Shown here: positions 5,650 through 61,537 of the stretch, one piece after another | Layout: the number at the start of each line of letters is the position of its first letter | Numbering within the stretch: position 1 is the stretch's first letter | Source: an uncultured Clostridia bacterium | GTDB lineage: Bacteria > Bacillota > Clostridia > TANB77 > CAG-508 | DNA: 64,000 bases | Assembly: GCA_944389655.1 (NCBI GenBank) | Contig: CALXND010000001.1 | Span: forward strand, 954 to 64,953 | Reading direction: 5' to 3' | Made by a program: the position numbers and the translations under genes | The notes under the pieces: model-generated | What the model was told of the DNA's origin: nothing | The model's input: the letters and a program-made list of their open reading frames with translations, nothing else | The model's database searches: none

Positions 5650-7190
5650 AATATATAAATTAACTACAGAGCACGGGGAGGTGAGTAGAATATTATCTCA
5701 ACCTCATTTGGGTAAAAATCCGCATAATAACAGGTGTCGAATATCTTTTCAAGTACAAATAAGTGGCGCTTCTAAGCCTGCACACTAATCATTGTTAAAC
5801 AAATTCTCTGTTTAGTGCTAGATATTCAGTCAATGTTTATATATTCTAAAATTCATTTTTAGGAAGTATATACCAATGTTAAAAATTGTATATCCTATTT
5901 GTTGTGGCGTCGATGTCCACAAGAGGTTTATTGTTGCAACCATTGCATTTACCAATGATAAAAATATCACTTCTTATATTACAAAAAGATTTGATACTTA
6001 CAACGAAGACCTTGAAATATTTAAAGATTGGCTTCTTGAACACAACTGTAAAGATGTTTGCATGGAATCTACCGGCAAGTACTATATTCCTATTTACAAC
6101 GTTTTAGAAGATTATGTTCATGTTATCGTAGCTAATCCTAAATATGTCAAGGCCATTCGTGGTAAAAAAACTGATAAGAAAGACTCTGTTTGGATTGCTG
6201 ACTTATTCAAGCATGACTTAGTTCCTGGAAGTTATATTCCACCTAAGCCTATCAGAAAATTACGTGAATTGTTTCGTTATCGTTTTAAATTAGTGAACAA
6301 CCGTACTTCTGAAAGAAACCGTTTACAAAATTGTTTAACTGTTTCAAATATCCAATTAGCTTCTGTTCTTACCGACATGGCAGGTAAATCTGCTCAAGCT
6401 ATTATTAATTATATCACAACTTGTGACACTTTTGATATAGATTATTGCAAATCTTTATTAAAAGGTTCTGCTAAATCAAAAGCTGATGATGTAATAAAAG
6501 CCATTGTTGGATATTCTATTAGTGATGAACAATCTACTAAAATTGATGTATGCACAAAACATCAGAAGAATTTGGATGAACATATTCAAGATGTTCAAGA
6601 TAAAATTTATGAGTTAGCAAAACCTTATCAAAAACAAATTGATCACATTTGTACTTGCCCTGGTTTCAGTAAAGACTCAGCTATTTATACTATAGATGAA
6701 ATTGGTGTTTATATGACAGCTTTTAAATCAGCTAAACATCTTTGCTCTTGGGCTGGTCTTACACCTCAAAATAATGAAAGTGCTGGTAAGAAAAAGTCTG
6801 TACATATCAGTAGAGCAGGTGTTTATCTTAAACCACTTCTCATAGAATGTGTAAACAATGCCATTAAGAAAAAGGATAATCCATATTTTAAAAATAAATA
6901 TGATAGAATTAAAAAACATCGAGGTCACAAAAGAGCTATTGTTGCTATATCAAGAATGATGCTTACTTGTGTCTATCACATGCTTTTAAAAGATGAAGAT
7001 TTCAATCCTTGTGATTTAGATTACACCGAAATACCAGAAGAAGTTTTTGAAAATCGCAAACAAAAATACATCGACAGTGCAATTTTCTTACTTCAAAAAC
7101 AAGGCTTTACAATTACCAAAGATGATGTTATTTATGCAACTAAATAAACCTATTTATTAAATTAATTTAATATTTTTTTACACAGTAGTA
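5650..7190 (+). mobile_element. IS110-family insertion sequence (boundaries approximate)
   Basis: Carries an IS110-type transposase gene preceded by ~250 bp of leader with GC-rich structured segments typical of this family. IS110 elements lack clear terminal inverted repeats, so the ends cannot be fixed by eye. Confidence 0.5.
5876..7147 (+). CDS. IS110-family transposase (DEDD-type), 423 aa
   Basis: N-terminus MLKIVYPICCGVDVHKRFIVATI and the C-terminal region with AGLTPQNNESAGKKKS...HRGHKRAIVAISRMML are characteristic of IS110/IS1111-family transposases. Confidence 0.9.
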   Translation: MLKIVYPICCGVDVHKRFIVATIAFTNDKNITSYITKRFDTYNEDLEIFKDWLLEHNCKDVCMESTGKYYIPIYNVLEDYVHVIVANPKYVKAIRGKKTDKKDSVWIADLFKHDLVPGSYIPPKPIRKLRELFRYRFKLVNNRTSERNRLQNCLTVSNIQLASVLTDMAGKSAQAIINYITTCDTFDIDYCKSLLKGSAKSKADDVIKAIVGYSISDEQSTKIDVCTKHQKNLDEHIQDVQDKIYELAKPYQKQIDHICTCPGFSKDSAIYTIDEIGVYMTAFKSAKHLCSWAGLTPQNNESAGKKKSVHISRAGVYLKPLLIECVNNAIKKKDNPYFKNKYDRIKKHRGHKRAIVAISRMMLTCVYHMLLKDEDFNPCDLDYTEIPEEVFENRKQKYIDSAIFLLQKQGFTITKDDVIYATK

Positions 7191-8249: not shown

Positions 8250-8562
8250 AACTGTTACCTCCCTAAAATCAATCTTTAAGATTATACAATTTTTCAATTC
8301 TTATTTATGAGTAATAATTTTAAATAAAGTTAATTATTCTTAAATTTACAAATTAAAACTTCTATTTTTTTGATTTATCCACACATAAATTCTATAAAAA
8401 TGAAAAATCGCTTTTAATCGGATATTCTAATTAAAATTATTTTGTGTACAATAATTTATAATATTTATTATAATATCCGTCATTATTATTTTAACCTTTT
8501 ATAGAAAAAATATTTTTTTATTTTATAGAAAATTTAACAATTTTTTCCACGCAAAAATTTTA

Positions 8563-11631: not shown

Positions 11632-12816
11632 TTAAAACGTATCTTCTAAATTTTTCTCTTTTAATTTATTGTTTGTGTTTTCTTCAATTATCGCATACAA
11701 AATTGAAACTACTGGAAGTCCTACAATCATACCCATTATGCCAAATAAGCTTCCTCCAATTGTAATTGCAACCAGCACCCAAATGCTTGGAAGACCAATA
11801 TTTTTTCCTACAACATGTGGATAAATTAGGTTTCCTTCTACTTGTTGAAGTACTATTATAAATAAAATAAATATTAATGCTTTAATTGGGTCGATTGCTA
11901 CTATTAGTACTGCACCAATAAATCCAGATATAAATGCTCCAACTATTGGAATAAATGCTGTTATTGCAGTAAGTGCTCCTATTGGCCCTGCATATGGAAT
12001 TCCTAAAATAAACATACCTATAGCACATAGTGAGCCTAGTATTACTGCTTCTTTTGCTTGCCCTGTTAAAAAGCTTCTAAATGAATCTCTAGCAAGTCTG
12101 CTAACTTTTATAATATAGTCTGCTTTTTCTTTTGTGCAACGCGCATATATAAATTTCTTTGCTTGCAATTTTAGATTTTCCTTATTTGCTAAAATATATA
12201 CTGCAAATATTATTGATATAAAGAAGTTTACAATATTTGATAATAGGCTAGATACTTGGTTTATTGTGATATTTAATACATCTTTAGATAAATTCATTAT
12301 TCCATTTTTTAATGCTTCTGTATCTATATGTATATTTTGTATAAAATTATTTATATCTGGAAATCTTTGCGTAATATCAATTGCAAAATTTTTGGCATCT
12401 TCTAAAAAATTTGGTATATTGCTTATTAAGTTTTTTATAACCTCTACAAATTGTGGAATTATTAATACTAAAATTATAGTTATTACAGCTATTATTGTAA
12501 TTATTGAAAGTGCTATAGAAAATGGTCTTTTTATTTTGTTTGTTCTTGTTACATTACTTTTTCCATCTGGTTTTACAGTTTTAGAGCTTTTATCGGCGTT
12601 TTTCTTTCTTGACTTGAATATTTTGTTTTCATATATGCTCATAAATATATTTAAAATAAATGCTATTGCTAATCCCCATATAAACGGAGAAATAATGTTT
12701 AGGAACTCTTTTACGCCTCCCCATACTGGACCAATGTTTAAAAGTGCTACTAATAAAACTATAGCTATTACAACAATTTTTATAATTTGCTTTGTATTTT
12801 CTTTATCTAGCTTCAT
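11632..12816 (-). CDS. AI-2E family transporter (PerM/UPF0118-type permease), 394 aa
   Basis: Polytopic membrane protein with the family's large cytoplasmic loop (KENLKLQAKKFIYARCTKEKADYIIKVSRLARDSFRSFLTGQAKEAVILG). Confidence 0.8.
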   Translation of the reverse strand: MKLDKENTKQIIKIVVIAIVLLVALLNIGPVWGGVKEFLNIISPFIWGLAIAFILNIFMSIYENKIFKSRKKNADKSSKTVKPDGKSNVTRTNKIKRPFSIALSIITIIAVITIILVLIIPQFVEVIKNLISNIPNFLEDAKNFAIDITQRFPDINNFIQNIHIDTEALKNGIMNLSKDVLNITINQVSSLLSNIVNFFISIIFAVYILANKENLKLQAKKFIYARCTKEKADYIIKVSRLARDSFRSFLTGQAKEAVILGSLCAIGMFILGIPYAGPIGALTAITAFIPIVGAFISGFIGAVLIVAIDPIKALIFILFIIVLQQVEGNLIYPHVVGKNIGLPSIWVLVAITIGGSLFGIMGMIVGLPVVSILYAIIEENTNNKLKEKNLEDTF

Positions 12817-52008: not shown

Positions 52009-54630
52009 CTATCTTGGATTTTTAATTGCTGCTTGTGCTGCTGCAAGGCGTGCTATTGGAACTCTAAATGGTGAACAAGATACATATGTTAGACCAATTC
52101 TATGGCAATATTCCACAGTTGGTGGATTTCCTCCATGTTCTCCGCAAATTCCAAGCTCTATGTCTGGTCTTGTTTGCCTTCCTAATTTTACAGCATGTTC
52201 TACTAACTTACCAACTCCATCTTCATCTATTCTTGCAAACGGATCAAAATCGTAAATATTTTTTGAATAATATTCTCCTAAGAATTTACCTGCGTCATCA
52301 CGGCTAAATCCAAATGTCATTTGTGTTAAATCGTTTGTTCCAAATGAGAAAAATTCTGCTTCTTTTGCAATTTTGTCTGCTATTAATGTAGCTCTTGGAA
52401 TTTCTATCATTGTTCCAACCATGTATTTAATATTCATTCCTGCTTCTTCTAACATTTCGTTTGCAGTTTTCGTAATTATATTTTTTACATATACCAGCTC
52501 TTTATAGTCACCAACTAGAGGTATCATTATTTCAGGTTTTACTTCTATTCCTTCTTTTTTAACATTTATTGCTGCACCTATTATAGCTTTTGTTTGCATT
52601 ACTCCAATTTCTGGGTATGTTACATCTAGCCTACAGCCTCTATGTCCCATCATTGGGTTAAATTCATGCAATCCTGTTACAATGTTTTTTAGTTCTTCAA
52701 AAGTCATTCCCATGTCTTTTGCTAAAGCTTCTATTTCGTCATCCGTATGTGGAAGAAATTCATGTAGTGGAGGATCTAATAATCTTATTGTTACTGGAAG
52801 ACCTTTCATCTCTCTAAATAATCCTTCAAAATCTCCTCTTTGCATTGGAAGTATTTTATCTAATGCCTTTTCTCTTTGTTCCTTTGTCTTAGATACAATC
52901 ATTTCTCTAATTGCAGCTATTCTTTCTGGAGCAAAAAACATATGCTCTGTTCTACATAAGCCTATACCTTCAGCACCAAATTCATAAGCTTGTTTTGCAT
53001 CCTTTGGTGTATCTGCATTTGTTCTTACTTCCATTTGTCTATATCTATCTGCCCATTCCATAAATTTAGCAAAATTTCCTGTTACCTGCGCACTAACTGT
53101 ATCTATTTTTTCTCCATACACATTTCCTGTGCTTCCATCTAGTGAAATCCAATCTCCCTCATGATAAGTATTGCCGTTTACAGAAAATGTTCCTTCTTCT
53201 TCATTTACAGTTATCTCTGAGCAACCAGATACACAACAAGTTCCCATTCCTCTTGCTACAACTGCTGCATGTGATGTCATACCTCCTCTTACAGTAAGTA
53301 TTCCATGGCACACATGCATACCATCTATATCTTCTGGAGATGTTTCAAGTCTTACTAATATTAAGTCTTTTTCTCCTGCTTCATGCTTTTTTAGTGCCTC
53401 TTCTGCTGTAAATACAACTTTTCCTGTTGCTGCTCCTGGTGATGCTGCAAGTCCCTTTGCAATATGTTTAGCTTTTTTTAATTTTTCCTCATCAAAATTT
53501 GGGTGCAACAATTGATCTAGTTGGTTTGGCTCAACTCTTAGAACAGCTTCTTTTTCTGTTATCATTCCCTCATTTACTAAATCTACTGCTATTTGTAGTG
53601 CTGCTGTTGCTGTTCTTTTTCCATTTCTTGTTTGAAGGAAATATAACTTTCCATTTTCTATTGTAAATTCCATATCTTGCATATCTTTGTAATGTTTTTC
53701 TAGCTTATTTGCATACATTACAAAATCTTGATATGCTTCCATGTCTGTTTCTTTTAATGTTTCAATTGGAAGTGGTGTACGAATTCCTGCAACAACATCT
53801 TCACCTTGCGCATTCATTAAGTATTCACCAAATATCTTATTTTCTCCTGTAGCTGGGTTACGAGAAAATGCAACGCCAGTACCACAGTCTTCTCCCATAT
53901 TTCCAAATACCATTTCTTGAACATTAACAGCTGTTCCCCAACTACTTGGTATATCATTTAAACGTCTATATGTTATTGCCCTTGGGTTGTTCCATGAACG
54001 AAATACTGCTGTTACAGCTTCAATTAGTTGTTCTTCTGGATTACTTGGAAATTCTTCTCCGTGCTCTTTTTTATATATTCCCTTAAATATTTTTACTAAT
54101 TCTTTTAGAGCATCTGCATTAAGCTCTGTATCAAGCTTTACGCCTTTTAATTTTTTTACTTTATCTATTTCTTCTTCAAATAGCGATTTTGGTATTTCCA
54201 TTACAACATCACTAAACATTTGAATAAACCTTCTGTAGCTATCATATGCAAATCTTTCGTTCTTTTTTGCCATTGCTTCCACTACTCTTTCATTAAGCCC
54301 AAGATTTAATATTGTATCCATCATTCCTGGCATTGAAGCTCTTGCGCCAGAACGCACAGACACAAGAAGTGGATTTTCTGGATTTCCAAATGTTTTGCCT
54401 GTCATTCTTTCTAGTTCTCTTAAACTATTAAATATTTGTGTTTTTACAGTCTCTGATACTGTCTCCCCATTATTATAATATTCAATACATGCTTCTGTAG
54501 TTATTGTAAATCCTTGTGGAATTGGAAGTCCTAAATTTGTCATTTCTGCTAAGTTTGCTCCCTTTCCACCAAGCAGTTCTCTCATTGAAGCATTTCCCTC
54601 TCTAAATAAGTATACATACTTTTTATCCAT
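52009..54630 (-). CDS. ppdK: Pyruvate, phosphate dikinase, 873 aa
   Basis: N-terminal ATP-grasp, central phosphohistidine swivel (GGMTSHAAVVARGMG) and C-terminal PEP-utilising TIM barrel (RTNDLTQ region). Full PPDK length. Confidence 0.95.
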   Translation of the reverse strand: MDKKYVYLFREGNASMRELLGGKGANLAEMTNLGLPIPQGFTITTEACIEYYNNGETVSETVKTQIFNSLRELERMTGKTFGNPENPLLVSVRSGARASMPGMMDTILNLGLNERVVEAMAKKNERFAYDSYRRFIQMFSDVVMEIPKSLFEEEIDKVKKLKGVKLDTELNADALKELVKIFKGIYKKEHGEEFPSNPEEQLIEAVTAVFRSWNNPRAITYRRLNDIPSSWGTAVNVQEMVFGNMGEDCGTGVAFSRNPATGENKIFGEYLMNAQGEDVVAGIRTPLPIETLKETDMEAYQDFVMYANKLEKHYKDMQDMEFTIENGKLYFLQTRNGKRTATAALQIAVDLVNEGMITEKEAVLRVEPNQLDQLLHPNFDEEKLKKAKHIAKGLAASPGAATGKVVFTAEEALKKHEAGEKDLILVRLETSPEDIDGMHVCHGILTVRGGMTSHAAVVARGMGTCCVSGCSEITVNEEEGTFSVNGNTYHEGDWISLDGSTGNVYGEKIDTVSAQVTGNFAKFMEWADRYRQMEVRTNADTPKDAKQAYEFGAEGIGLCRTEHMFFAPERIAAIREMIVSKTKEQREKALDKILPMQRGDFEGLFREMKGLPVTIRLLDPPLHEFLPHTDDEIEALAKDMGMTFEELKNIVTGLHEFNPMMGHRGCRLDVTYPEIGVMQTKAIIGAAINVKKEGIEVKPEIMIPLVGDYKELVYVKNIITKTANEMLEEAGMNIKYMVGTMIEIPRATLIADKIAKEAEFFSFGTNDLTQMTFGFSRDDAGKFLGEYYSKNIYDFDPFARIDEDGVGKLVEHAVKLGRQTRPDIELGICGEHGGNPPTVEYCHRIGLTYVSCSPFRVPIARLAAAQAAIKNPR

Positions 54631-54827
54631 ATTTACATCGTTCCTTTCTCTAGGCTTGAATTTGCTTAATTCTTCCTATTATATCTTTTGCATTTTTTAA
54701 CATTTTATACTGCTTTTGTAAATTTTTTCTATAATTATTATATATGTAAGTCTTCAAATTGTAAATAAAAAATGTTAAGAAATTTTATATTTTAAGTATA
54801 TAAAATTAATTTTTCGAATCATTAAAG

Positions 54828-55017
54828 TTATCCACAGACAAAATTCTCATTTTTTGTATAATTTTATATAAAACTTCTCTTTATAAGTTACTTTTTGACA
54901 TTATGTTACATTATTATTCGATTTTTTTAAATAAAATTTATCCACATATATGTGGATAATGTGGATAACTCTGTGAATAACTATAAACAGTGGGTTTGGT
55001 TTTCAAAGTTATCCACA
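54828..55017. promoter_or_regulatory. Cluster of six DnaA boxes (five perfect TTATCCACA/TGTGGATAA, one TGTGAATAA) upstream of ppdK and downstream of polC
   Basis: Boxes at 54828-54836, 54938-54946, 54951-54959, 54960-54968, 54972-54980 (one mismatch) and 55009-55017. An AT-rich tract lies at 54900-54937. Read directly from the sequence. Confidence 0.65.
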
Positions 55018-55102
55018 TTAATATTTGCAATTTTTTATGAAAACTGCTTATTTTGTTACTTTTTGTTTTGTTAAAGGCATTATGTAATTTTCTGTCGAAA
55101 AC

Positions 55103-55135
55103 TGCGCAAAAGGGGTCTGACCCCATTTGCGCAAA
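55103..55135. repeat. GC-rich palindrome copy (tgcgcaaaaggggtctgaccccatttgcgcaaa) immediately downstream of polC
   Basis: Near-perfect palindrome read from the sequence. Confidence 0.9.
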
Positions 55136-58100
55136 TTATCCAAATAAACTCATTTGATTGCTTTGGCTCATTCCCTTTAAACAGCCAACTCTATCTAATA
55201 GTTCTATAACTGATTTTCCTATTTTTGAACGTATTTTCATATCGTCTATTGACATGAATTTGCCATCTTGCTTTGCTGTGTCTATTCCTTCTGCTGCTAC
55301 TGTTCCAAGTCCTGGTATACTGTTTAATGGTGGACGAATTCCTTCCTCTTCTACTAGGAATTTTGTTGCATGTGATTTATATAAATCTATTGGCAAGAAT
55401 TTTATTCCTCTTTCATACATTTCTAGTACTAGTTCTAATATTGCATACATGTTTTTGTCTTTTGTGGTTGCACTATTACCTGCTAAGTCTATTTCTTTCA
55501 TTTTGTTTATAACTTTTTCTTTGCCGTAGCACATGATGTCGCTATCAAATTCGTCTGCTCTAATTGTAAAATATGCTGCATAATACGCTTCCGGCTTATG
55601 TACTTTAAACCACGCTATCCTGAATGCATTTGTTACATAGGCTGCTGCATGGGCCTTTGGGAACATGTATTTTATTTTTTCACATGATTTTATATACCAT
55701 TCTGGTACGTCATGTTCCTTCATTATGCCTACAAATTCTGCCCATTTTTCTGGATCTTTTAATGCTTTTCCTTTACGTACTGTTTCCATTATTTTAAATG
55801 CTTTGTTTGGAGGAACTCCTTTTTTTATTAGGTATATCATTATATCATCACGGCAACAGATTGCCTCATTTAAGGTTACTGTTCCTTCTTCTATTAAGCT
55901 TTGTGCATTATTTAACCATACGTCTGTACCATGTGATAAACCTGAAATACGTATTAGCTCATCAAATGTGGTTGGTTTTGTATCCACAAGCATTCCTCTT
56001 ACAAATTTTGTTCCGAACTCTGGTATGCCATAGCTTCCTACCTTAGATTTTATTTGTTCCGGTGTTACTCCAAGCGCATCTGTTGAACTAAAGATTGACA
56101 TTGTTTCTTTATCATCAAGTGGAACTTTGGTTGGGTCTATTCCTGTTATATCATATAGCATTCTTATCATTGTAGGATCATCATGACCAAGTATATCAAG
56201 TTTTAATAAGTTTTGGTCGATTGAGTGGTAATCAAAGTGTGTTGTGATTATATCCGAGTTTGGATCATCTGCCGGATGTTGTACTGGGCAGAATTCATAA
56301 ATTTCTCTTCCTTTTGGTACAACTATAATTCCACCAGGGTGCTGTCCTGTTGTTCTTTTTATTCCAGTGCATCCTTGTGCTATTCTTAGTACCTCGGCAT
56401 TGTTTACTGGTATTCCTCTTTCTTCGTAATATTTCTTTACATATCCATATGCAGTTTTATCTGCAACCGTACCAACTGTCCCAGCTTTAAATGTTGTTCC
56501 CTTTCCAAATATTACCTCTGTATATCTATGTGCTTTTGCTTGATACTCTCCTGAAAAGTTTAAGTCTATATCTGGCTCTTTGTCACCGTTAAATCCAAGG
56601 AATGTTTCAAAAGGTATATCTATTCCGTCCTTAACCATCTTAGTTCCACATTTTGGGCAATTCTTATCAGGCAAGTCAAATCCACACGCATAGCTATAAT
56701 CTGTAAAATCAGAATATTTACATTGAGGGCACCTATAATGTGGAGGTAATGAGTTTACTTCTGTTATACCTGTTGCATATGCTGCAAATGATGAACCAAC
56801 AGAACCTCTAGAACCAACAATATATCCATCCTCATTTGATTTCCACACCAGCTTTTGAGCTATTATATACATTACTGAGAATCCATTTTTTATAATTGAA
56901 TCTAATTCTTTGCTTAGTCTTTCTTCAACCAAGTCAGGTAATGGATCTCCATAAAGCTCATGAGCCTTTTTATATGCAATATCTTTTATTGTTTGCTCGC
57001 AACCATCAATATGTGGTGGACATTTCTCTGGTGAGATTGGACTTATTTTCTCACACATATCTGATATTTTGTTTGTATTTGTTACAACTACTTCATATGC
57101 CTTTTCTTCTCCTAAGTATTCAAATTCTTTTAGCATTTCCTCTGTAGTACGAAGGTATAATGGTGCTTGTTCGTCTGCATCATCATACCCTTGTCCAGCC
57201 ATTAAAATACGTCTATATATTTCGTCTTGTGGGTCCATAAAGTGAACATCGCAAGTTGCTACTACTGGTTTGCCTAGCTTGTCTCCTATCTCTACTATTT
57301 TCTTATTTATATCTTCTAAACCTTTTACGTCTGCTACTGTTCCATTTCTAACCATAAACATATTATTTCCAAGTGGTTGTATTTCTAAATAATCATAATC
57401 TGATGCAATTGCATCTATTTCTTCGTCTGTTTTTCCTGCAACAATTGCTCTATACAATTCCCCTGCTTCGCATGCACTCCCTAGAATTAAACCTTCTGAG
57501 TATTTTTTGTATAATGATTTTAATATTCTAGGTTTTTTATAGAAATAATCTAAATGTGAGTATGATATTAACTTATATAGATTTTTTAATCCTACATAGT
57601 TTTGTGCTAAGATAATTGCATGATATGTTGGGAGTCTTCTAAAATCTGTTTTCCCTGCACATAATTTATCTATGTCCTCTATTTTTTTAGCACCTTTTTC
57701 TTTAAGCATATTTATCATAACATTAAATACTTTTACTGTCGTGTCCACATCATCTAATGCTCTATGAGCCACTTCTACCTTAATTCCTAAGTTTTCGGCA
57801 ATTATTCCTAATTTATATTTCTTATAATCTGGAAATAGCTCTTTTGATAGTCTTAATGTATCTAAATATGTATTATCCAAGTTATACCCAAGTTGTTTAG
57901 CGTTATATTTTAAAAAACCTATATCAAAATCCGCGTTATGCGCTACTAAAACACTATCTCCCAAGAAATCCATAAGCTTTGGAAATACCGTTTCTATTGT
58001 TTCCGCATCTTTTACCATATCATCTGTAATGTTTGTAACTTCTACAACTCTTTGAGGAATAGGTTTCTCAGGGTTTACAAAACATGAAAACTCCTCCAAA

Positions 58101-59524
58101 ACCTCTCCATTTTTTATTTTCATTACTCCAATTTCAGTTATTTTTTCTGTTCTAAATGAAAAACCTGTTGTCTCCAAATCAAGTACACAATATGTAGTAT
58201 CTATTTCCTGTCCTTTTGGGAATGATACAACTGGAGTTCTATCTGGTGCTAAATATGCTTCAACTCCATAAATAACTTTTAAATCTGGATGGTCTTTTTC
58301 CAAATATTTATGCGCTTCTGGAAAAGCTTGTACAACTCCATGGTCAGTTATTGCAATTGATTTCATTCCCCATTTTACCGCTCTTTTTAATAGGTCTGTA
58401 GCAGATGTCATTCCATCCATTTGGCTCATCTGTGTGTGCATATGAAGCTCTACTCTCTTTTCTTTCGCATTATCCATTCTAATTTGCTTCTTTAATCCTG
58501 TACTTTCAATTATTACATTTGCTATTACGCCTAACTCTTTAGCAAATGGGTCAAATTGCGCTGTACCTTCTAGTTTTATTCCTTTTGCGCCCTTTAACCT
58601 TTTTATTAAATCCTTTGATTTGTCTCCTTCCGAAAATGCCTTACAGGTAATTGTACTTGAACCATCATACAAATCAAACATTACAAGTACTTTTCCACTT
58701 TTTAACTCTCGCGAATCTATATTCAATATTTCTCCATCAAGTTGAACTTTTCCACTATCCACACTTAAATCTGCAATTTTTACTAATTGTTCTTTTAATT
58801 TTAAGCTTCTGCCAAAAATTAAAGGAGAGGCTTCTTGCTCTTTTTCATTTGTAGGCATTTCTATCGAAACACTTACTTCTCCAGAATTATTTACCTGAAC
58901 CTTACTCTTGTCGCCAGATTGTTCTTTTGATTCTACATCTCTGTTTGCTATTTCGGCTACTTCACCTGCTTGCTCTGCTTCTCTTTGTGCTTGCATAATT
59001 GCTTCTCTTTCAAGGTTAATTGCATGTTCCATATATTGTTTTACAGCTTCTTCTGTAATATTTTCAATAAAAATAATTTTGTATTTTAGGCCATATATAT
59101 CCTCTATAATTTTAGATAGTATTTTATCAAAGCCCTTTGCTTCTATAACCATCTTACCTTTCATAGCCATATTTACAATTATTTTATCACCTTCTATTTC
59201 AATATTACTATTCTTTAAAAAAGCTTTACTAAGAGGGTGTTTATGCGCCATATAGCAAATTACAAGATTCCATTCTTTTTTTATGTCTACATCAATTGGT
59301 TTTGAATACTCTACTTTTATATTTACTTCAAATATATTAAACCTATTTTTTAAATACTGCTCAAATTTGTATATATCTTCTATTTTTATAAAATCATCTG
59401 CTGTTATAATTAATTCTAGTTTATTCGTTTTTTTAAACAAATTTATTGATTTTATCTTACTTGCATTCAAAGAAAAACTATTTGAATCATAGTCTTTAAA
59501 AATTTCTTTTATTGTTTTATCCAT
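55136..59524 (-). CDS. polC: DNA polymerase III PolC-type (Gram-positive replicative polymerase), 1462 aa
   Basis: Length and domain order fit PolC: OB domain, PHP domain, inserted DEDDh 3'-5' exonuclease (YCVLDLETTG, HNADFD) and polymerase core. Confidence 0.95.
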   Translation of the reverse strand: MDKTIKEIFKDYDSNSFSLNASKIKSINLFKKTNKLELIITADDFIKIEDIYKFEQYLKNRFNIFEVNIKVEYSKPIDVDIKKEWNLVICYMAHKHPLSKAFLKNSNIEIEGDKIIVNMAMKGKMVIEAKGFDKILSKIIEDIYGLKYKIIFIENITEEAVKQYMEHAINLEREAIMQAQREAEQAGEVAEIANRDVESKEQSGDKSKVQVNNSGEVSVSIEMPTNEKEQEASPLIFGRSLKLKEQLVKIADLSVDSGKVQLDGEILNIDSRELKSGKVLVMFDLYDGSSTITCKAFSEGDKSKDLIKRLKGAKGIKLEGTAQFDPFAKELGVIANVIIESTGLKKQIRMDNAKEKRVELHMHTQMSQMDGMTSATDLLKRAVKWGMKSIAITDHGVVQAFPEAHKYLEKDHPDLKVIYGVEAYLAPDRTPVVSFPKGQEIDTTYCVLDLETTGFSFRTEKITEIGVMKIKNGEVLEEFSCFVNPEKPIPQRVVEVTNITDDMVKDAETIETVFPKLMDFLGDSVLVAHNADFDIGFLKYNAKQLGYNLDNTYLDTLRLSKELFPDYKKYKLGIIAENLGIKVEVAHRALDDVDTTVKVFNVMINMLKEKGAKKIEDIDKLCAGKTDFRRLPTYHAIILAQNYVGLKNLYKLISYSHLDYFYKKPRILKSLYKKYSEGLILGSACEAGELYRAIVAGKTDEEIDAIASDYDYLEIQPLGNNMFMVRNGTVADVKGLEDINKKIVEIGDKLGKPVVATCDVHFMDPQDEIYRRILMAGQGYDDADEQAPLYLRTTEEMLKEFEYLGEEKAYEVVVTNTNKISDMCEKISPISPEKCPPHIDGCEQTIKDIAYKKAHELYGDPLPDLVEERLSKELDSIIKNGFSVMYIIAQKLVWKSNEDGYIVGSRGSVGSSFAAYATGITEVNSLPPHYRCPQCKYSDFTDYSYACGFDLPDKNCPKCGTKMVKDGIDIPFETFLGFNGDKEPDIDLNFSGEYQAKAHRYTEVIFGKGTTFKAGTVGTVADKTAYGYVKKYYEERGIPVNNAEVLRIAQGCTGIKRTTGQHPGGIIVVPKGREIYEFCPVQHPADDPNSDIITTHFDYHSIDQNLLKLDILGHDDPTMIRMLYDITGIDPTKVPLDDKETMSIFSSTDALGVTPEQIKSKVGSYGIPEFGTKFVRGMLVDTKPTTFDELIRISGLSHGTDVWLNNAQSLIEEGTVTLNEAICCRDDIMIYLIKKGVPPNKAFKIMETVRKGKALKDPEKWAEFVGIMKEHDVPEWYIKSCEKIKYMFPKAHAAAYVTNAFRIAWFKVHKPEAYYAAYFTIRADEFDSDIMCYGKEKVINKMKEIDLAGNSATTKDKNMYAILELVLEMYERGIKFLPIDLYKSHATKFLVEEEGIRPPLNSIPGLGTVAAEGIDTAKQDGKFMSIDDMKIRSKIGKSVIELLDRVGCLKGMSQSNQMSLFG

Positions 59525-59645: not shown

Positions 59646-60380
59646 TTATTGTAGTATTCTTCCTACATCATTGAATGCCACATAAACTGATAATGTTATA
59701 AGTACTAAAAAGCCTAGTAATTGAAGCTTTAGCTCAAAGTTTTCTTTTAGTGGTTTTCTTCTAATTAATTCTATAATATATATTAATATTTTTCCCCCAT
59801 CAAGTGGTGGAAATGGCAATAAATTTGTAACTCCTAATGACATTGACACCAAAGCCATTATATAAAAGAAATCCAATAAGCCATTTGTTTGTGCCACTAC
59901 TTGAGAAATTCCTATTGGACCCATAAAGTCATTTACAGTCACTCCTCCAGTAAATATTAATTTTATACTCTCTACCATTGCCATTACAAAATTACCTGTT
60001 GATGTAATTGCTTTTGCTATATTTCCTGTTAATATTGTTGCTATTATAATATATAAGATTAACGCAAAAATTATATTTACTAAGCCTCCTGCTGCAACTA
60101 TAGCTATTTTTTTAGGTATACTTGCTTTACTAAAAGAGCCTTCCTCTTCTGAACGCTCTTCTTCTCCTAGCATACTTACATATCCTCCAAGCGGAATAAG
60201 TCTAACCATATATTTAGTTTTTTCTGTCTCTTTTTTCCATAAAATTGGCCCAAACCCTATAGAGAATTCTTTTACTTTAACCCTACATAATCGTGCAACT
60301 AAGAAATGTCCTGTTTCATGAATTAATACTAGAAATCCTAGTATTATAATTATTTTTAAAGCTGCTATAATAAAACCCAT
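59646..60380 (-). CDS. rseP: Site-2 protease of the M50 family (RseP/RasP position) lacking a PDZ domain, about 244 aa
   Basis: HETGH zincin motif in TM1 and a C-terminal NLLPFPPLDGG motif. Only ~245 aa, against ~420 aa for PDZ-containing RseP. ATG start MGFIIA is preferred over the track's GTG. Confidence 0.75.
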   Translation of the reverse strand: MGFIIAALKIIIILGFLVLIHETGHFLVARLCRVKVKEFSIGFGPILWKKETEKTKYMVRLIPLGGYVSMLGEEERSEEEGSFSKASIPKKIAIVAAGGLVNIIFALILYIIIATILTGNIAKAITSTGNFVMAMVESIKLIFTGGVTVNDFMGPIGISQVVAQTNGLLDFFYIMALVSMSLGVTNLLPFPPLDGGKILIYIIELIRRKPLKENFELKLQLLGFLVLITLSVYVAFNDVGRILQ

Positions 60381-60432
60381 ACACACGTCCTTTTATGTTA
60401 CTTATCACAGTATAATAACGTTTTTGCCTGAT

Positions 60433-60622
60433 GTCAGAGTTAATATATTAAAAATATGCAAACGAATATGTCGGTCAAGCTGATTTTCGAACTAATTCTA
60501 AAGAAATTTTTGCAGCGCCCTCAGCCAGCAGAGATTCCCTACAAAAATTTCTCAAGAATTAGTAACTTCAAATCACATTCCATTCCATATTCTCACATAT
60601 TTTGAATATATTAACTCTGACT
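60433..60622. mobile_element. MITE-like element, copy 3, between cdsA and rseP
   Basis: TIRs gtcagagttaatatattaaaaatatg ... catattttgaatatattaactctgac. About 90% identical to copy 1 over the core. Confidence 0.7.
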
Positions 60623-60730
60623 ATAGTAAAAGGGGTTATACTGTGATAAGTACCATCTTTATTATTGACTTTCAATCGTATATAAACTTAATTGTAGTCA
60701 TTTATTAATTTAAGAAATCCATTTAATAAA

Positions 60731-61537
60731 TTATATTATACATAGTAAAAAATATGCAAAAGGCAAGATAAATATTACACTGTCTATTCTGTCTAGAAGA
60801 CCACCATGCCCTGGTATTAAATTACTATAATCTTTTATACCGCAGTGTCTTTTAACACTTGATGCTGCTAAATCTCCAATTTGGCTAATTATGCTTAAGA
60901 ATACAGCAATTCCAAATGCATATATATAGCTAATTCCTAAATTCCAAATTGCATTTATTGCTAATGTATACGTCATGCAAAAGAATATTGAGCCTAAAAT
61001 TCCTCCTACACATCCTTCCACAGATTTCTTTGGGCTGATTTCTGTAAATTTGTGTTTTCCTAAATTTTTTCCAATAAAATATGCAAAAATATCAGTTCCC
61101 CATGCAGCAAAAAACACATACCAAATTAGTATTCTACCATTGTTTAGGCTGTCTCTAATAAGTGGTGCAAACATTAGAAAAAATACAACATAGCATAATC
61201 CTAATAATGATATTGCAATATCCGTAATATTTCTTTTTAATGATGTTACAACTACTTGTGTAAATAAAGCTAATACATTCATAAGTATTAATAATGTTAT
61301 AGATGGTAAAACATATTCATTTGGAATAAGATGTATACAGCAAATGAGTCCTGCTGTTATGTATCCCGGCCATTGAATTGGATTTGCTTTTTCTCTAAAT
61401 GCTTTATAAAATTCATGCAGGCTCATTATTGCTACAATTGCTATAAATACATCAAATACATATTTATTTCCAAATATTAATATAACTGCAAATATTGGAA
61501 AAAGTGTTAATCCTGATATAATTCTCTTTATGTTCAT
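60731..61537 (-). CDS. cdsA: Phosphatidate cytidylyltransferase (CdsA), 268 aa
   Basis: Polytopic membrane protein with the C-terminal CTP-transferase signature (SxxKRxxGxKDxSxxIPGHGGxxDRxDS). Confidence 0.9.
   Translation of the reverse strand: MNIKRIISGLTLFPIFAVILIFGNKYVFDVFIAIVAIMSLHEFYKAFREKANPIQWPGYITAGLICCIHLIPNEYVLPSITLLILMNVLALFTQVVVTSLKRNITDIAISLLGLCYVVFFLMFAPLIRDSLNNGRILIWYVFFAAWGTDIFAYFIGKNLGKHKFTEISPKKSVEGCVGGILGSIFFCMTYTLAINAIWNLGISYIYAFGIAVFLSIISQIGDLAASSVKRHCGIKDYSNLIPGHGGLLDRIDSVIFILPFAYFLLCII

Follow-up and report, generated by a model that had tools for sequence, protein, structure and literature searches.

In an uncultured Clostridia bacterium, six DnaA boxes are found close together between the genes polC and ppdK, and the question raised by this locus is what such a group of boxes does away from any dnaA gene. 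Five perfect boxes (TTATCCACA) and one box with a single mismatch (TTATTCACA) lie inside 190 bp at positions 54828–55017 of the window, i.e., the whole 64-kb stretch of DNA that was analysed. The perfect boxes start at 54828, 54938 and 55009 on the plus strand and at 54951 and 54960 on the minus strand, and the one-mismatch box occupies 54972–54980 on the minus strand. The existence of this six-box cluster between the two genes, as stated in the original prediction, was confirmed by a sequence scan and by enrichment over shuffled sequences.

The gene polC (55136–59524, minus strand) encodes a PolC-type DNA polymerase III of 1462 amino acids (aa) (NCBIfam NF001688, 1813 bits) and ppdK (52009–54630, minus strand) a pyruvate, phosphate dikinase of 873 aa (NCBIfam TIGR01828, 1404 bits). 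An exact look-up of this PolC sequence gave no match. All boxes are located in the 505-bp spacer between both genes, 198–387 bp upstream of the ppdK ATG and at least 119 bp downstream of the polC stop codon. They come after the intrinsic terminator of polC, a hairpin at 55103–55133 (minus strand) with 15-nt arms of 93 % complementarity which is followed by AGTTTTCGACAG on the minus strand. Read in the direction of polC, the arrangement begins with a perfect box at 55009–55017 (plus strand), called box 0, which has the opposite orientation to the tandem boxes and begins 37 bp before them. The tandem boxes form the conserved core GTTATTCACAGAGTTATCCACATTATCCACA (54951–54981, minus strand). It comprises a double DnaA box, consisting of TTATTCACA, a 3-bp gag spacer and TTATCCACA at 54960–54980 (minus strand), and a third, directly abutting perfect box, all of them head to tail. 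Together with the last tandem box, the perfect box at 54938–54946 (plus strand) builds the palindrome TTATCCACA-tata-TGTGGATAA.

An AT-rich spacer (54837–54937, 84 % AT) extends from this main group to the promoter-proximal sixth box, a perfect one at 54828–54836 (plus strand), which is specific to the sub-lineage of the window, comprising the window, L085 and L093 (L numbers designate related metagenomic lineages and their contigs). Among the non-coding 100-bp windows of the whole stretch the AT tract belongs to the top 4 % and is only moderately unusual. Downstream of the sixth box, at a distance of 63 bp, comes the −35 element of a sigma-70-type promoter-like site, TTTACA-17-TATAAT (54737–54765, minus strand; 11 of 12 matches), which is the likely promoter of ppdK. 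Other kinds of element in the spacer were considered as well. A non-coding RNA or riboswitch was ruled out, as no Rfam family matched at gathering thresholds and only chance-level matches to miRNA families, caused by the box palindromes, were obtained. Likewise, a small gene, e.g., for a Sda-like protein, was rejected: only low-complexity open reading frames (ORFs) of up to 62 aa are present, and none of them is conserved in relatives.

Some peculiarities of the neighbouring polC region may be mentioned here. Of the block cdsA-dxr-rseP-ispG-polC, which is usual in Firmicutes, dxr and ispG are missing in the window (59646–61537), and RseP has only about 245 aa, matching the N- and C-terminal parts of a 421-aa model whose unmatched middle is presumably the PDZ region. 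A 1-nt frameshift divides the polC of a sister species (PolC C-terminus 96 % identical) into two ORFs, one of 1165 and one of 285 aa (L173, 19960–20030). The split is seen in at least four independent assemblies (L173; also L174, L175, L129 and L130); the gene may be genuinely split, recoding may be involved, or a sequencing error may recur systematically.

The group of boxes is genuine and not a random one. Seven perfect boxes in the full 64-kb window compare with 0.71 ± 0.92 expected from 100 dinucleotide-preserving shuffles, none of which reached seven, and the chance of five or more boxes within 190 bp is about 3e-16 per position by a Poisson estimate. Boxes with one mismatch show no enrichment across the window (32 vs 22 expected), so that the signal is the cluster itself. 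Box density elsewhere, which the original prediction had named as a check on the cluster, turned out to be background only, as perfect boxes occur at a rate of 0.6 per 64 kb in the 0.84 Mb of related DNA of low GC content that was scanned. The remaining two perfect boxes of the window (8375–8383 and 11816–11824), one of them intergenic and the other within an AI-2E transporter gene, are isolated and fit this background density. Two further sites were left out of the count: the weak box TTATACAAA in the AT-rich spacer (54853–54861) is a poor match and was excluded from the evidence, and the one-mismatch box TTATCCAAA at 55136–55144 consists of the final polC codons (..LFG-stop) and is conserved in all relatives for coding reasons, so it was not counted within the cluster. 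Five independent metagenome assemblies of this species carry the cluster in identical or almost identical form, so that an artefact of assembly is excluded. Within-species SNPs miss the boxes or, in one case, fall on the free fifth (N) position of TTATNCACA.

A quantitative description of such sites is available from Bacillus subtilis, where stable DnaA-binding regions were characterised by an index A, defined as the summed affinities of four successive boxes divided by their mean spacing (Ishikawa 2007; PMC2533591). The eight B. subtilis sites detected by ChAP-chip are exclusively those with A above 0.3, ranging from 0.36 to 1.64 (PMC2533591). A DnaA-box cluster (DBC) is accordingly defined by at least four successive boxes with not more than one mismatch to TTATNCACA and A >0.3 (PMC2533591). 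Calculated with a re-implementation of this index, the cluster reaches a peak of A = 3.90 at 54938–54980 and qualifies as a DBC on this index, while the rest of the window outside the spacer, including the surroundings of the two isolated boxes, does not exceed 0.06. In 2.3 Mb of loci from diverse Firmicutes, values above 0.3 were found only in homologues of the module downstream of polC, where module denotes the arrangement of boxes that recurs in relatives. The location is intergenic and outside oriC, judged from the region between −55 kb and +19 kb, and conservation in relatives, the other property of DBCs, is found as well.

Relatives were collected by a metagenome scan with the PolC C-terminus, which yielded a graded identity series. 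The module lies downstream of polC, at a distance of 119–3013 bp, in about 18 related metagenomic lineages with a PolC C-terminus 77–96 % identical (L083–86, L090–94, L099, L100, L102–105, L107, L129, L130 and L001). Within 6 kb of polC it is absent in other lineages and at all loci with a PolC identity of 76 % or less. In a neighbour-joining tree of the PolC C-terminus the carriers fall into two subclades, and lineages devoid of the module within 6 kb (L087, L097/98, L106, L110–124) are interleaved with them. These interleaved absences argue that the module is old, has been lost repeatedly and is dispensable.

What the relatives share is the core gTTATTCACAgagTTATCCACATTATCCACA, i.e., the double DnaA box and the third abutting box, together with the inverted box 37 bp upstream. 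In the direction of polC, the architecture consists of the inverted box TGTG[G/A/C]ATAA, a non-conserved spacer of 28 bp and the tandem boxes GTTATTCACA-GAG-TTATCCACA-TTATCCACA, often followed after a gap of 3–4 bp by TGTGGATAA. Among these relatives, the double DnaA box (TTATTCACA-gag-TTATCCACA in the window) does not vary in form. Most of them keep box 0, as TGTG[G/A/C]ATAA, in its place and orientation; L091 and L001 differ in that their upstream box points in the same direction as the tandem boxes instead of being inverted. The inverted partner box at the other end (54938 in the window) is found in about 11 of the 18 relatives and is degenerate or absent in L084, L086, L099, L107, L130, L104 and L001. 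In an ungapped comparison of the 18 lineages, the majority fraction has a mean of 0.94 in the tandem boxes vs 0.55–0.63 in the flanks, which indicates purifying selection on the boxes. The module as such is conserved under selection. A chance accumulation or a neutral relic without function would agree with the loss of the module in several lineages, but this explanation has to face the minute probability of the cluster given above, the 94 % conservation of boxes embedded in randomised intergenic DNA and the presence of the module in two divergent subclades; contradicted by the conservation pattern, it is effectively refuted.

Two short motifs accompany the module in part of the lineages. A conserved TGTAAAC heptamer is found behind the boxes, at +38 from the anchor box in L084, L086, L091 and L001 and at +47/48 in L099, L100, L102, L105 and L107; both distances are clade-specific and differ by about one helical turn, and the sub-lineage of the window does not possess the heptamer. 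A sigma-70 promoter built from the conserved TGTAAAC...ACATAAT motifs was ruled out on either strand by their inconsistent spacings. Furthermore, a TGTCGAA heptamer matching the Spo0A-box consensus stands beside the polC terminator (55093–55099, plus strand) and may or may not be part of the module. Across relatives, TGTCGAA/TTCGACA shows a roughly 38-fold enrichment in the ±300 bp around the module (5 in 10.7 kb vs 3 in 245 kb), the carriers being the window, L085, L093, L092 and L001, which represent only about three evolutionarily independent cases.

Several perfect DnaA boxes beside an 84 % AT tract might also be expected of an origin of replication, whether chromosomal, second or cryptic, or derived from an integrated plasmid or phage. 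The origins of low-GC Firmicutes indeed resemble the module in carrying the TTATCCACA consensus in clusters beside AT-rich DNA (Clostridium origins, PMC5749712). They consist of bipartite clusters flanking dnaA, with a DNA unwinding element (DUE) and DnaA-trios, whereas the module differs from them in lacking dnaA and dnaN, a skew switch, a divergence of gene orientation and a trio array. Each 2-kb bin between 1 and 64000 has a negative GC skew, without a switch at the cluster, and almost all genes on both sides of it are encoded on the minus strand, without a change of orientation. Moreover, in the window and in every relative the genes flanking the module lie on one strand on both sides. A search by annotation revealed neither dnaA nor dnaN in the window or 10 kb further upstream, corresponding to about 55 kb downstream and about 19 kb upstream of the cluster, and within the annotated window and these additional 10 kb there is no gene for a replication protein or an integrase. 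Upstream of the cluster, the window contains pyrH-frr-uppS-cdsA-rseP-polC, and downstream of it ppdK, surface proteins, sortase B, CoA-disulfide reductase, transporters, metK, penicillin-binding proteins (PBPs) and uvrB; in the 10 kb beyond the window upstream (contig L163), YkuD, ychF, a sortase and two IS66 copies follow. These neighbours differ from the conserved neighbours of origins. DnaA-trio arrays are absent as well, as no run of at least three TA[G/A] trinucleotides occurs on either strand of 54631–55135, and neither iterons nor any repeats besides the boxes are present. Neither the combination of GC-skew switch, gene divergence and dnaA/dnaN nor a tandem pair of boxes with DnaA-trios and a DUE behind it is found here.

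A plasmid or phage origin, or a mobile element, was rejected as well: iterons are missing, the core has no exact match among viral contigs, the region gave no match to 72,556 plasmids in a distant blastn search, and the sole transposase of the window, of the IS110 family, is 48 kb away. The cluster does not lie at the origin, and an origin function of any of these kinds is very improbable; the expectation of the original prediction that oriC is not located here holds, with uniform skew and gene orientation. As to the insertion elements themselves, only two genes of any size lie on the plus strand of the window; one encodes the IS110-family transposase (5876–7147), and the GC skew flattens locally around it. 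The IS66 family is represented by two tandem copies (TnpB and a DDE transposase) at 838–5878 of L163, upstream of YkuD-ychF, and all contigs of the window species break off at these copies, some 9 kb beyond the window on its upstream side.

The genes around the module have been exchanged repeatedly. On its upstream side, polC is usually followed by a gene for a DUF1294-type membrane protein of about 100 aa. This gene has been lost in the window, so that polC itself adjoins the module, and in L085, L129, L107 and L001 extra genes are inserted. On the downstream side, ppdK is the neighbour in the window species only. The commonest downstream gene is glyQS in seven lineages (L083, L084, L086, L092, L093, L129 and L001); a gene for a single-domain rhodanese is found in L090, L105 and L107, a TetR/FadR-like regulator with an acyl-CoA ligase in L099–L103, uvrA in L091 and a patatin-like gene in L130. 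A strong sigma-70-like promoter comes next, its distance from the module varying between 115 and 291 bp. L104 carries the module in inverted orientation, flanked by the 3′ ends of two genes that converge on it. This turnover of neighbours, the variable promoter distance and the inversion in L104 argue against an operator of one particular gene; the module is independent of the gene downstream of it. The pattern fits an autonomous DNA element that happens to occupy the gap between a terminator and the next promoter.

The same conclusion emerges from ppdK. In a PpdK scan with one genome per species, comprising 80 loci, a box cluster directly upstream of ppdK was found in none of the 80 other Firmicutes loci, and a conserved regulatory element of ppdK was therefore rejected. 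The closest relative by ppdK is an uncultured Clostridium MAG (L001) with a PpdK 81 % identical, in which the order is polC, the DUF1294 gene, a 778-aa ORF, the box cluster, glyQS, a spoVB-like gene and ppdK. As a conserved function, the suggested response of ppdK or polC transcription to DnaA through the cluster finds no support, given these 80 loci, at least five different following genes and the variable distances. Control of ppdK by the cluster is possible, at most as a local side effect of where ppdK landed.

Some further observations concern the DNA next to the module. In a strain of the window species (L166, 13634–13960), the start of an ORF resembling a helix-turn-helix (HTH) protein directly follows the polC terminator and replaces the box cluster, and the 3′ flank of polC seems to be an insertion hot spot within the species as between species. 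A conserved palindrome-like site TGAATG-N-TATTC occurs about 90–110 bp past the module in L099, L100, L102 and L103, just upstream of the genes for the TetR/FadR-like regulator and the acyl-CoA ligase, and is probably the regulator's own operator, unrelated to DnaA. The gene pair glyQS is regulated by a T-box in many Firmicutes. Upstream of glyQS in L001 (5146–5818), neither a T-box leader nor any other Rfam family was detected.

In a more general form, the module could be primarily a DnaA-dependent operator of whichever strong promoter follows, ppdK here and glyQS ancestrally, by which expression would be coupled to the replication status, as at sda, ywlC and yydA of B. subtilis. Of the six B. 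subtilis DBCs, three indeed control genes next to them. In 16 of the 18 lineages the module is upstream of a co-directional gene with the strong sigma-70-like promoter described above, and everywhere except in L104 it is upstream of some promoter; glyQS recurs as the commonest downstream gene, and in the window an extra perfect box is placed near the −35 element of ppdK. However, the target of such an operator would differ among close relatives, the distance to the promoter is not fixed, the module of L104 is placed between two convergent 3′ ends, and the ppdK loci, including that of L001, do not carry the cluster directly upstream. A promoter regulated by DnaA would be recognised by a fixed relation between boxes and promoter and by a conserved target gene, and here both target and distance vary. 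Altogether, a primary role as an operator is rather unlikely, if considerably less so than an origin.

A different alternative is a catalytic locus for the control of DnaA as known from Escherichia coli, either datA-like, promoting the hydrolysis of DnaA-ATP, or DARS-like, with oppositely oriented boxes and release of ADP; its chromosomal address would matter for the timing in the cell cycle. The loci datA, DARS1 and DARS2 of E. coli are, like the module, non-coding clusters of DnaA boxes off oriC with a conserved chromosomal position. The DARS core consists of three boxes, of which I and II are arranged head to head about 5 bp apart (PMC6868365). In the window, the head-to-head pair TTATCCACA-4 bp-TGTGGATAA has a same-direction neighbour, and the same combination of a consensus box, an opposite partner 3–4 bp away and a same-direction neighbour, recalling the DARS core, exists in about 11 relatives. 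In addition, the position on the chromosome, directly past the gene of the replicative polymerase, is kept despite gene turnover on both sides, and the conserved TGTAAAC resembles TTGTAAACA, the weak half-site of the double box at datA. From lineage to lineage the architecture remains fixed, with the inverted box, the 28-bp spacer and three head-to-tail boxes, to which some lineages add the head-to-head box and a phased weak box. On the other hand, 7 of 18 lineages have no inverted fourth box, so that the head-to-head arrangement is not universal, the module shows no sign of IHF or Fis sites and has no sequence homology to datA or DARS. Catalytic loci of the datA/DARS type are not known from Firmicutes. 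Homologues of Hda, DiaA and IHF are absent from B. subtilis (2026 review). That the module is a Firmicute analogue of these position-dependent loci, actively changing the state or timing of DnaA instead of titrating it passively, appears improbable from this comparison; if true, Clostridia would possess a replication-control element of a new class.

Compared with these alternatives, the module is best regarded as a self-contained, high-affinity candidate DnaA-binding element outside the origin, the Clostridial counterpart of the B. subtilis DBCs, which would hold DnaA away from oriC; on the evidence assembled here, we assign this reading a probability of about 55 %. The original prediction of a non-origin cluster similar to B. 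subtilis DBCs or to a titration site gains support in its DBC-type version from the index (A = 3.9 vs 0.3), from the lack of a skew switch and of dnaA/dnaN, and from the conservation of the module in relatives. The DBCs of B. subtilis (gcp-ydiF, yqeG-sda, ywlC-ywlB, ywcI-vpr, yydA-yycS and thdF-jag) are, like the module, intergenic and contain at least four close boxes including perfect TTATCCACA ones (PMC2533591, PMC3245932). They pass the same criterion of the A index, are conserved in relatives and are individually dispensable. The gcp-ydiF DBC, which is located between convergent genes and has no known transcriptional role, is not tied to one regulated gene either. In contrast to them, the module belongs to uncultured low-GC gut Clostridia and follows polC or the DUF1294 gene, where no DBC is known; it is denser (A = 3.9 vs at most 1.64), and its internal architecture is rigid. 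Most DBCs of Bacillus are close to oriC.

The double DnaA box in the core points in the same direction. By ChIP-seq and mutagenesis, the double DnaA box, defined as two boxes of the same orientation 2–3 bp apart with one of them near the consensus, was identified as the preferred in vivo DnaA site in E. coli, e.g., at oriC, datA, purH, polA and nrdA (Stringer, Fitzgerald and Wade 2024; PMC11317965). The module contains this arrangement, and the invariant core gTTATTCACAgagTTATCCACA has the same form as in E. coli, namely a weaker box, a 3-bp spacer (gag/aag) and a consensus box in the same orientation. It differs by the addition of a third abutting consensus box and of inverted flanking boxes, and the host is a Firmicute in which binding is predicted from the sequence. 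Several DnaA molecules would bind to the TTATTCACA-gag-TTATCCACA double box and the abutting third consensus box between their inverted flanking boxes, cooperatively and stably, and a complex of several protomers may be nucleated. The occupied module would then withhold some of the cellular DnaA, and possibly proteins associated with DnaA, from oriC, so that initiation could be damped or timed. Between the terminator of polC (or polC-DUF1294) and the next promoter, the element would persist while the genes on both sides are exchanged.

Most likely, the module acts as a sink or modulator of DnaA. Both the occupancy by DnaA in vivo and the role in titration or modulation are inferred, the role by analogy with B. 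subtilis. In B. subtilis, deletion of six DBCs leads to early initiation, and titration by a single DBC is weak and depends on the proximity to oriC. Two features speak against titration in its simple form: the fixed spacing of 37/12/9 bp is more constrained than simple titration requires, and only one cluster is present in the 64-kb window.

The locus adds a new example to a known kind of DnaA-binding site. Searches of the literature brought up neither a DnaA-box cluster at polC or glyQS nor clusters away from the origin in Clostridia, an absence that is no proof of novelty. The control of initiation is poorly known outside E. coli and B. subtilis, and in Clostridia only oriC has been looked at. 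For a clade of uncultured gut Clostridia, the module provides a well-delimited candidate regulatory DnaA site of about 100–190 bp with comparative support, and its conserved 31-mer is a simple handle for the search for such sites in metagenomes. Its rigid architecture and its persistence amid changing genes argue that non-origin DnaA clusters are selected beyond Bacillus.
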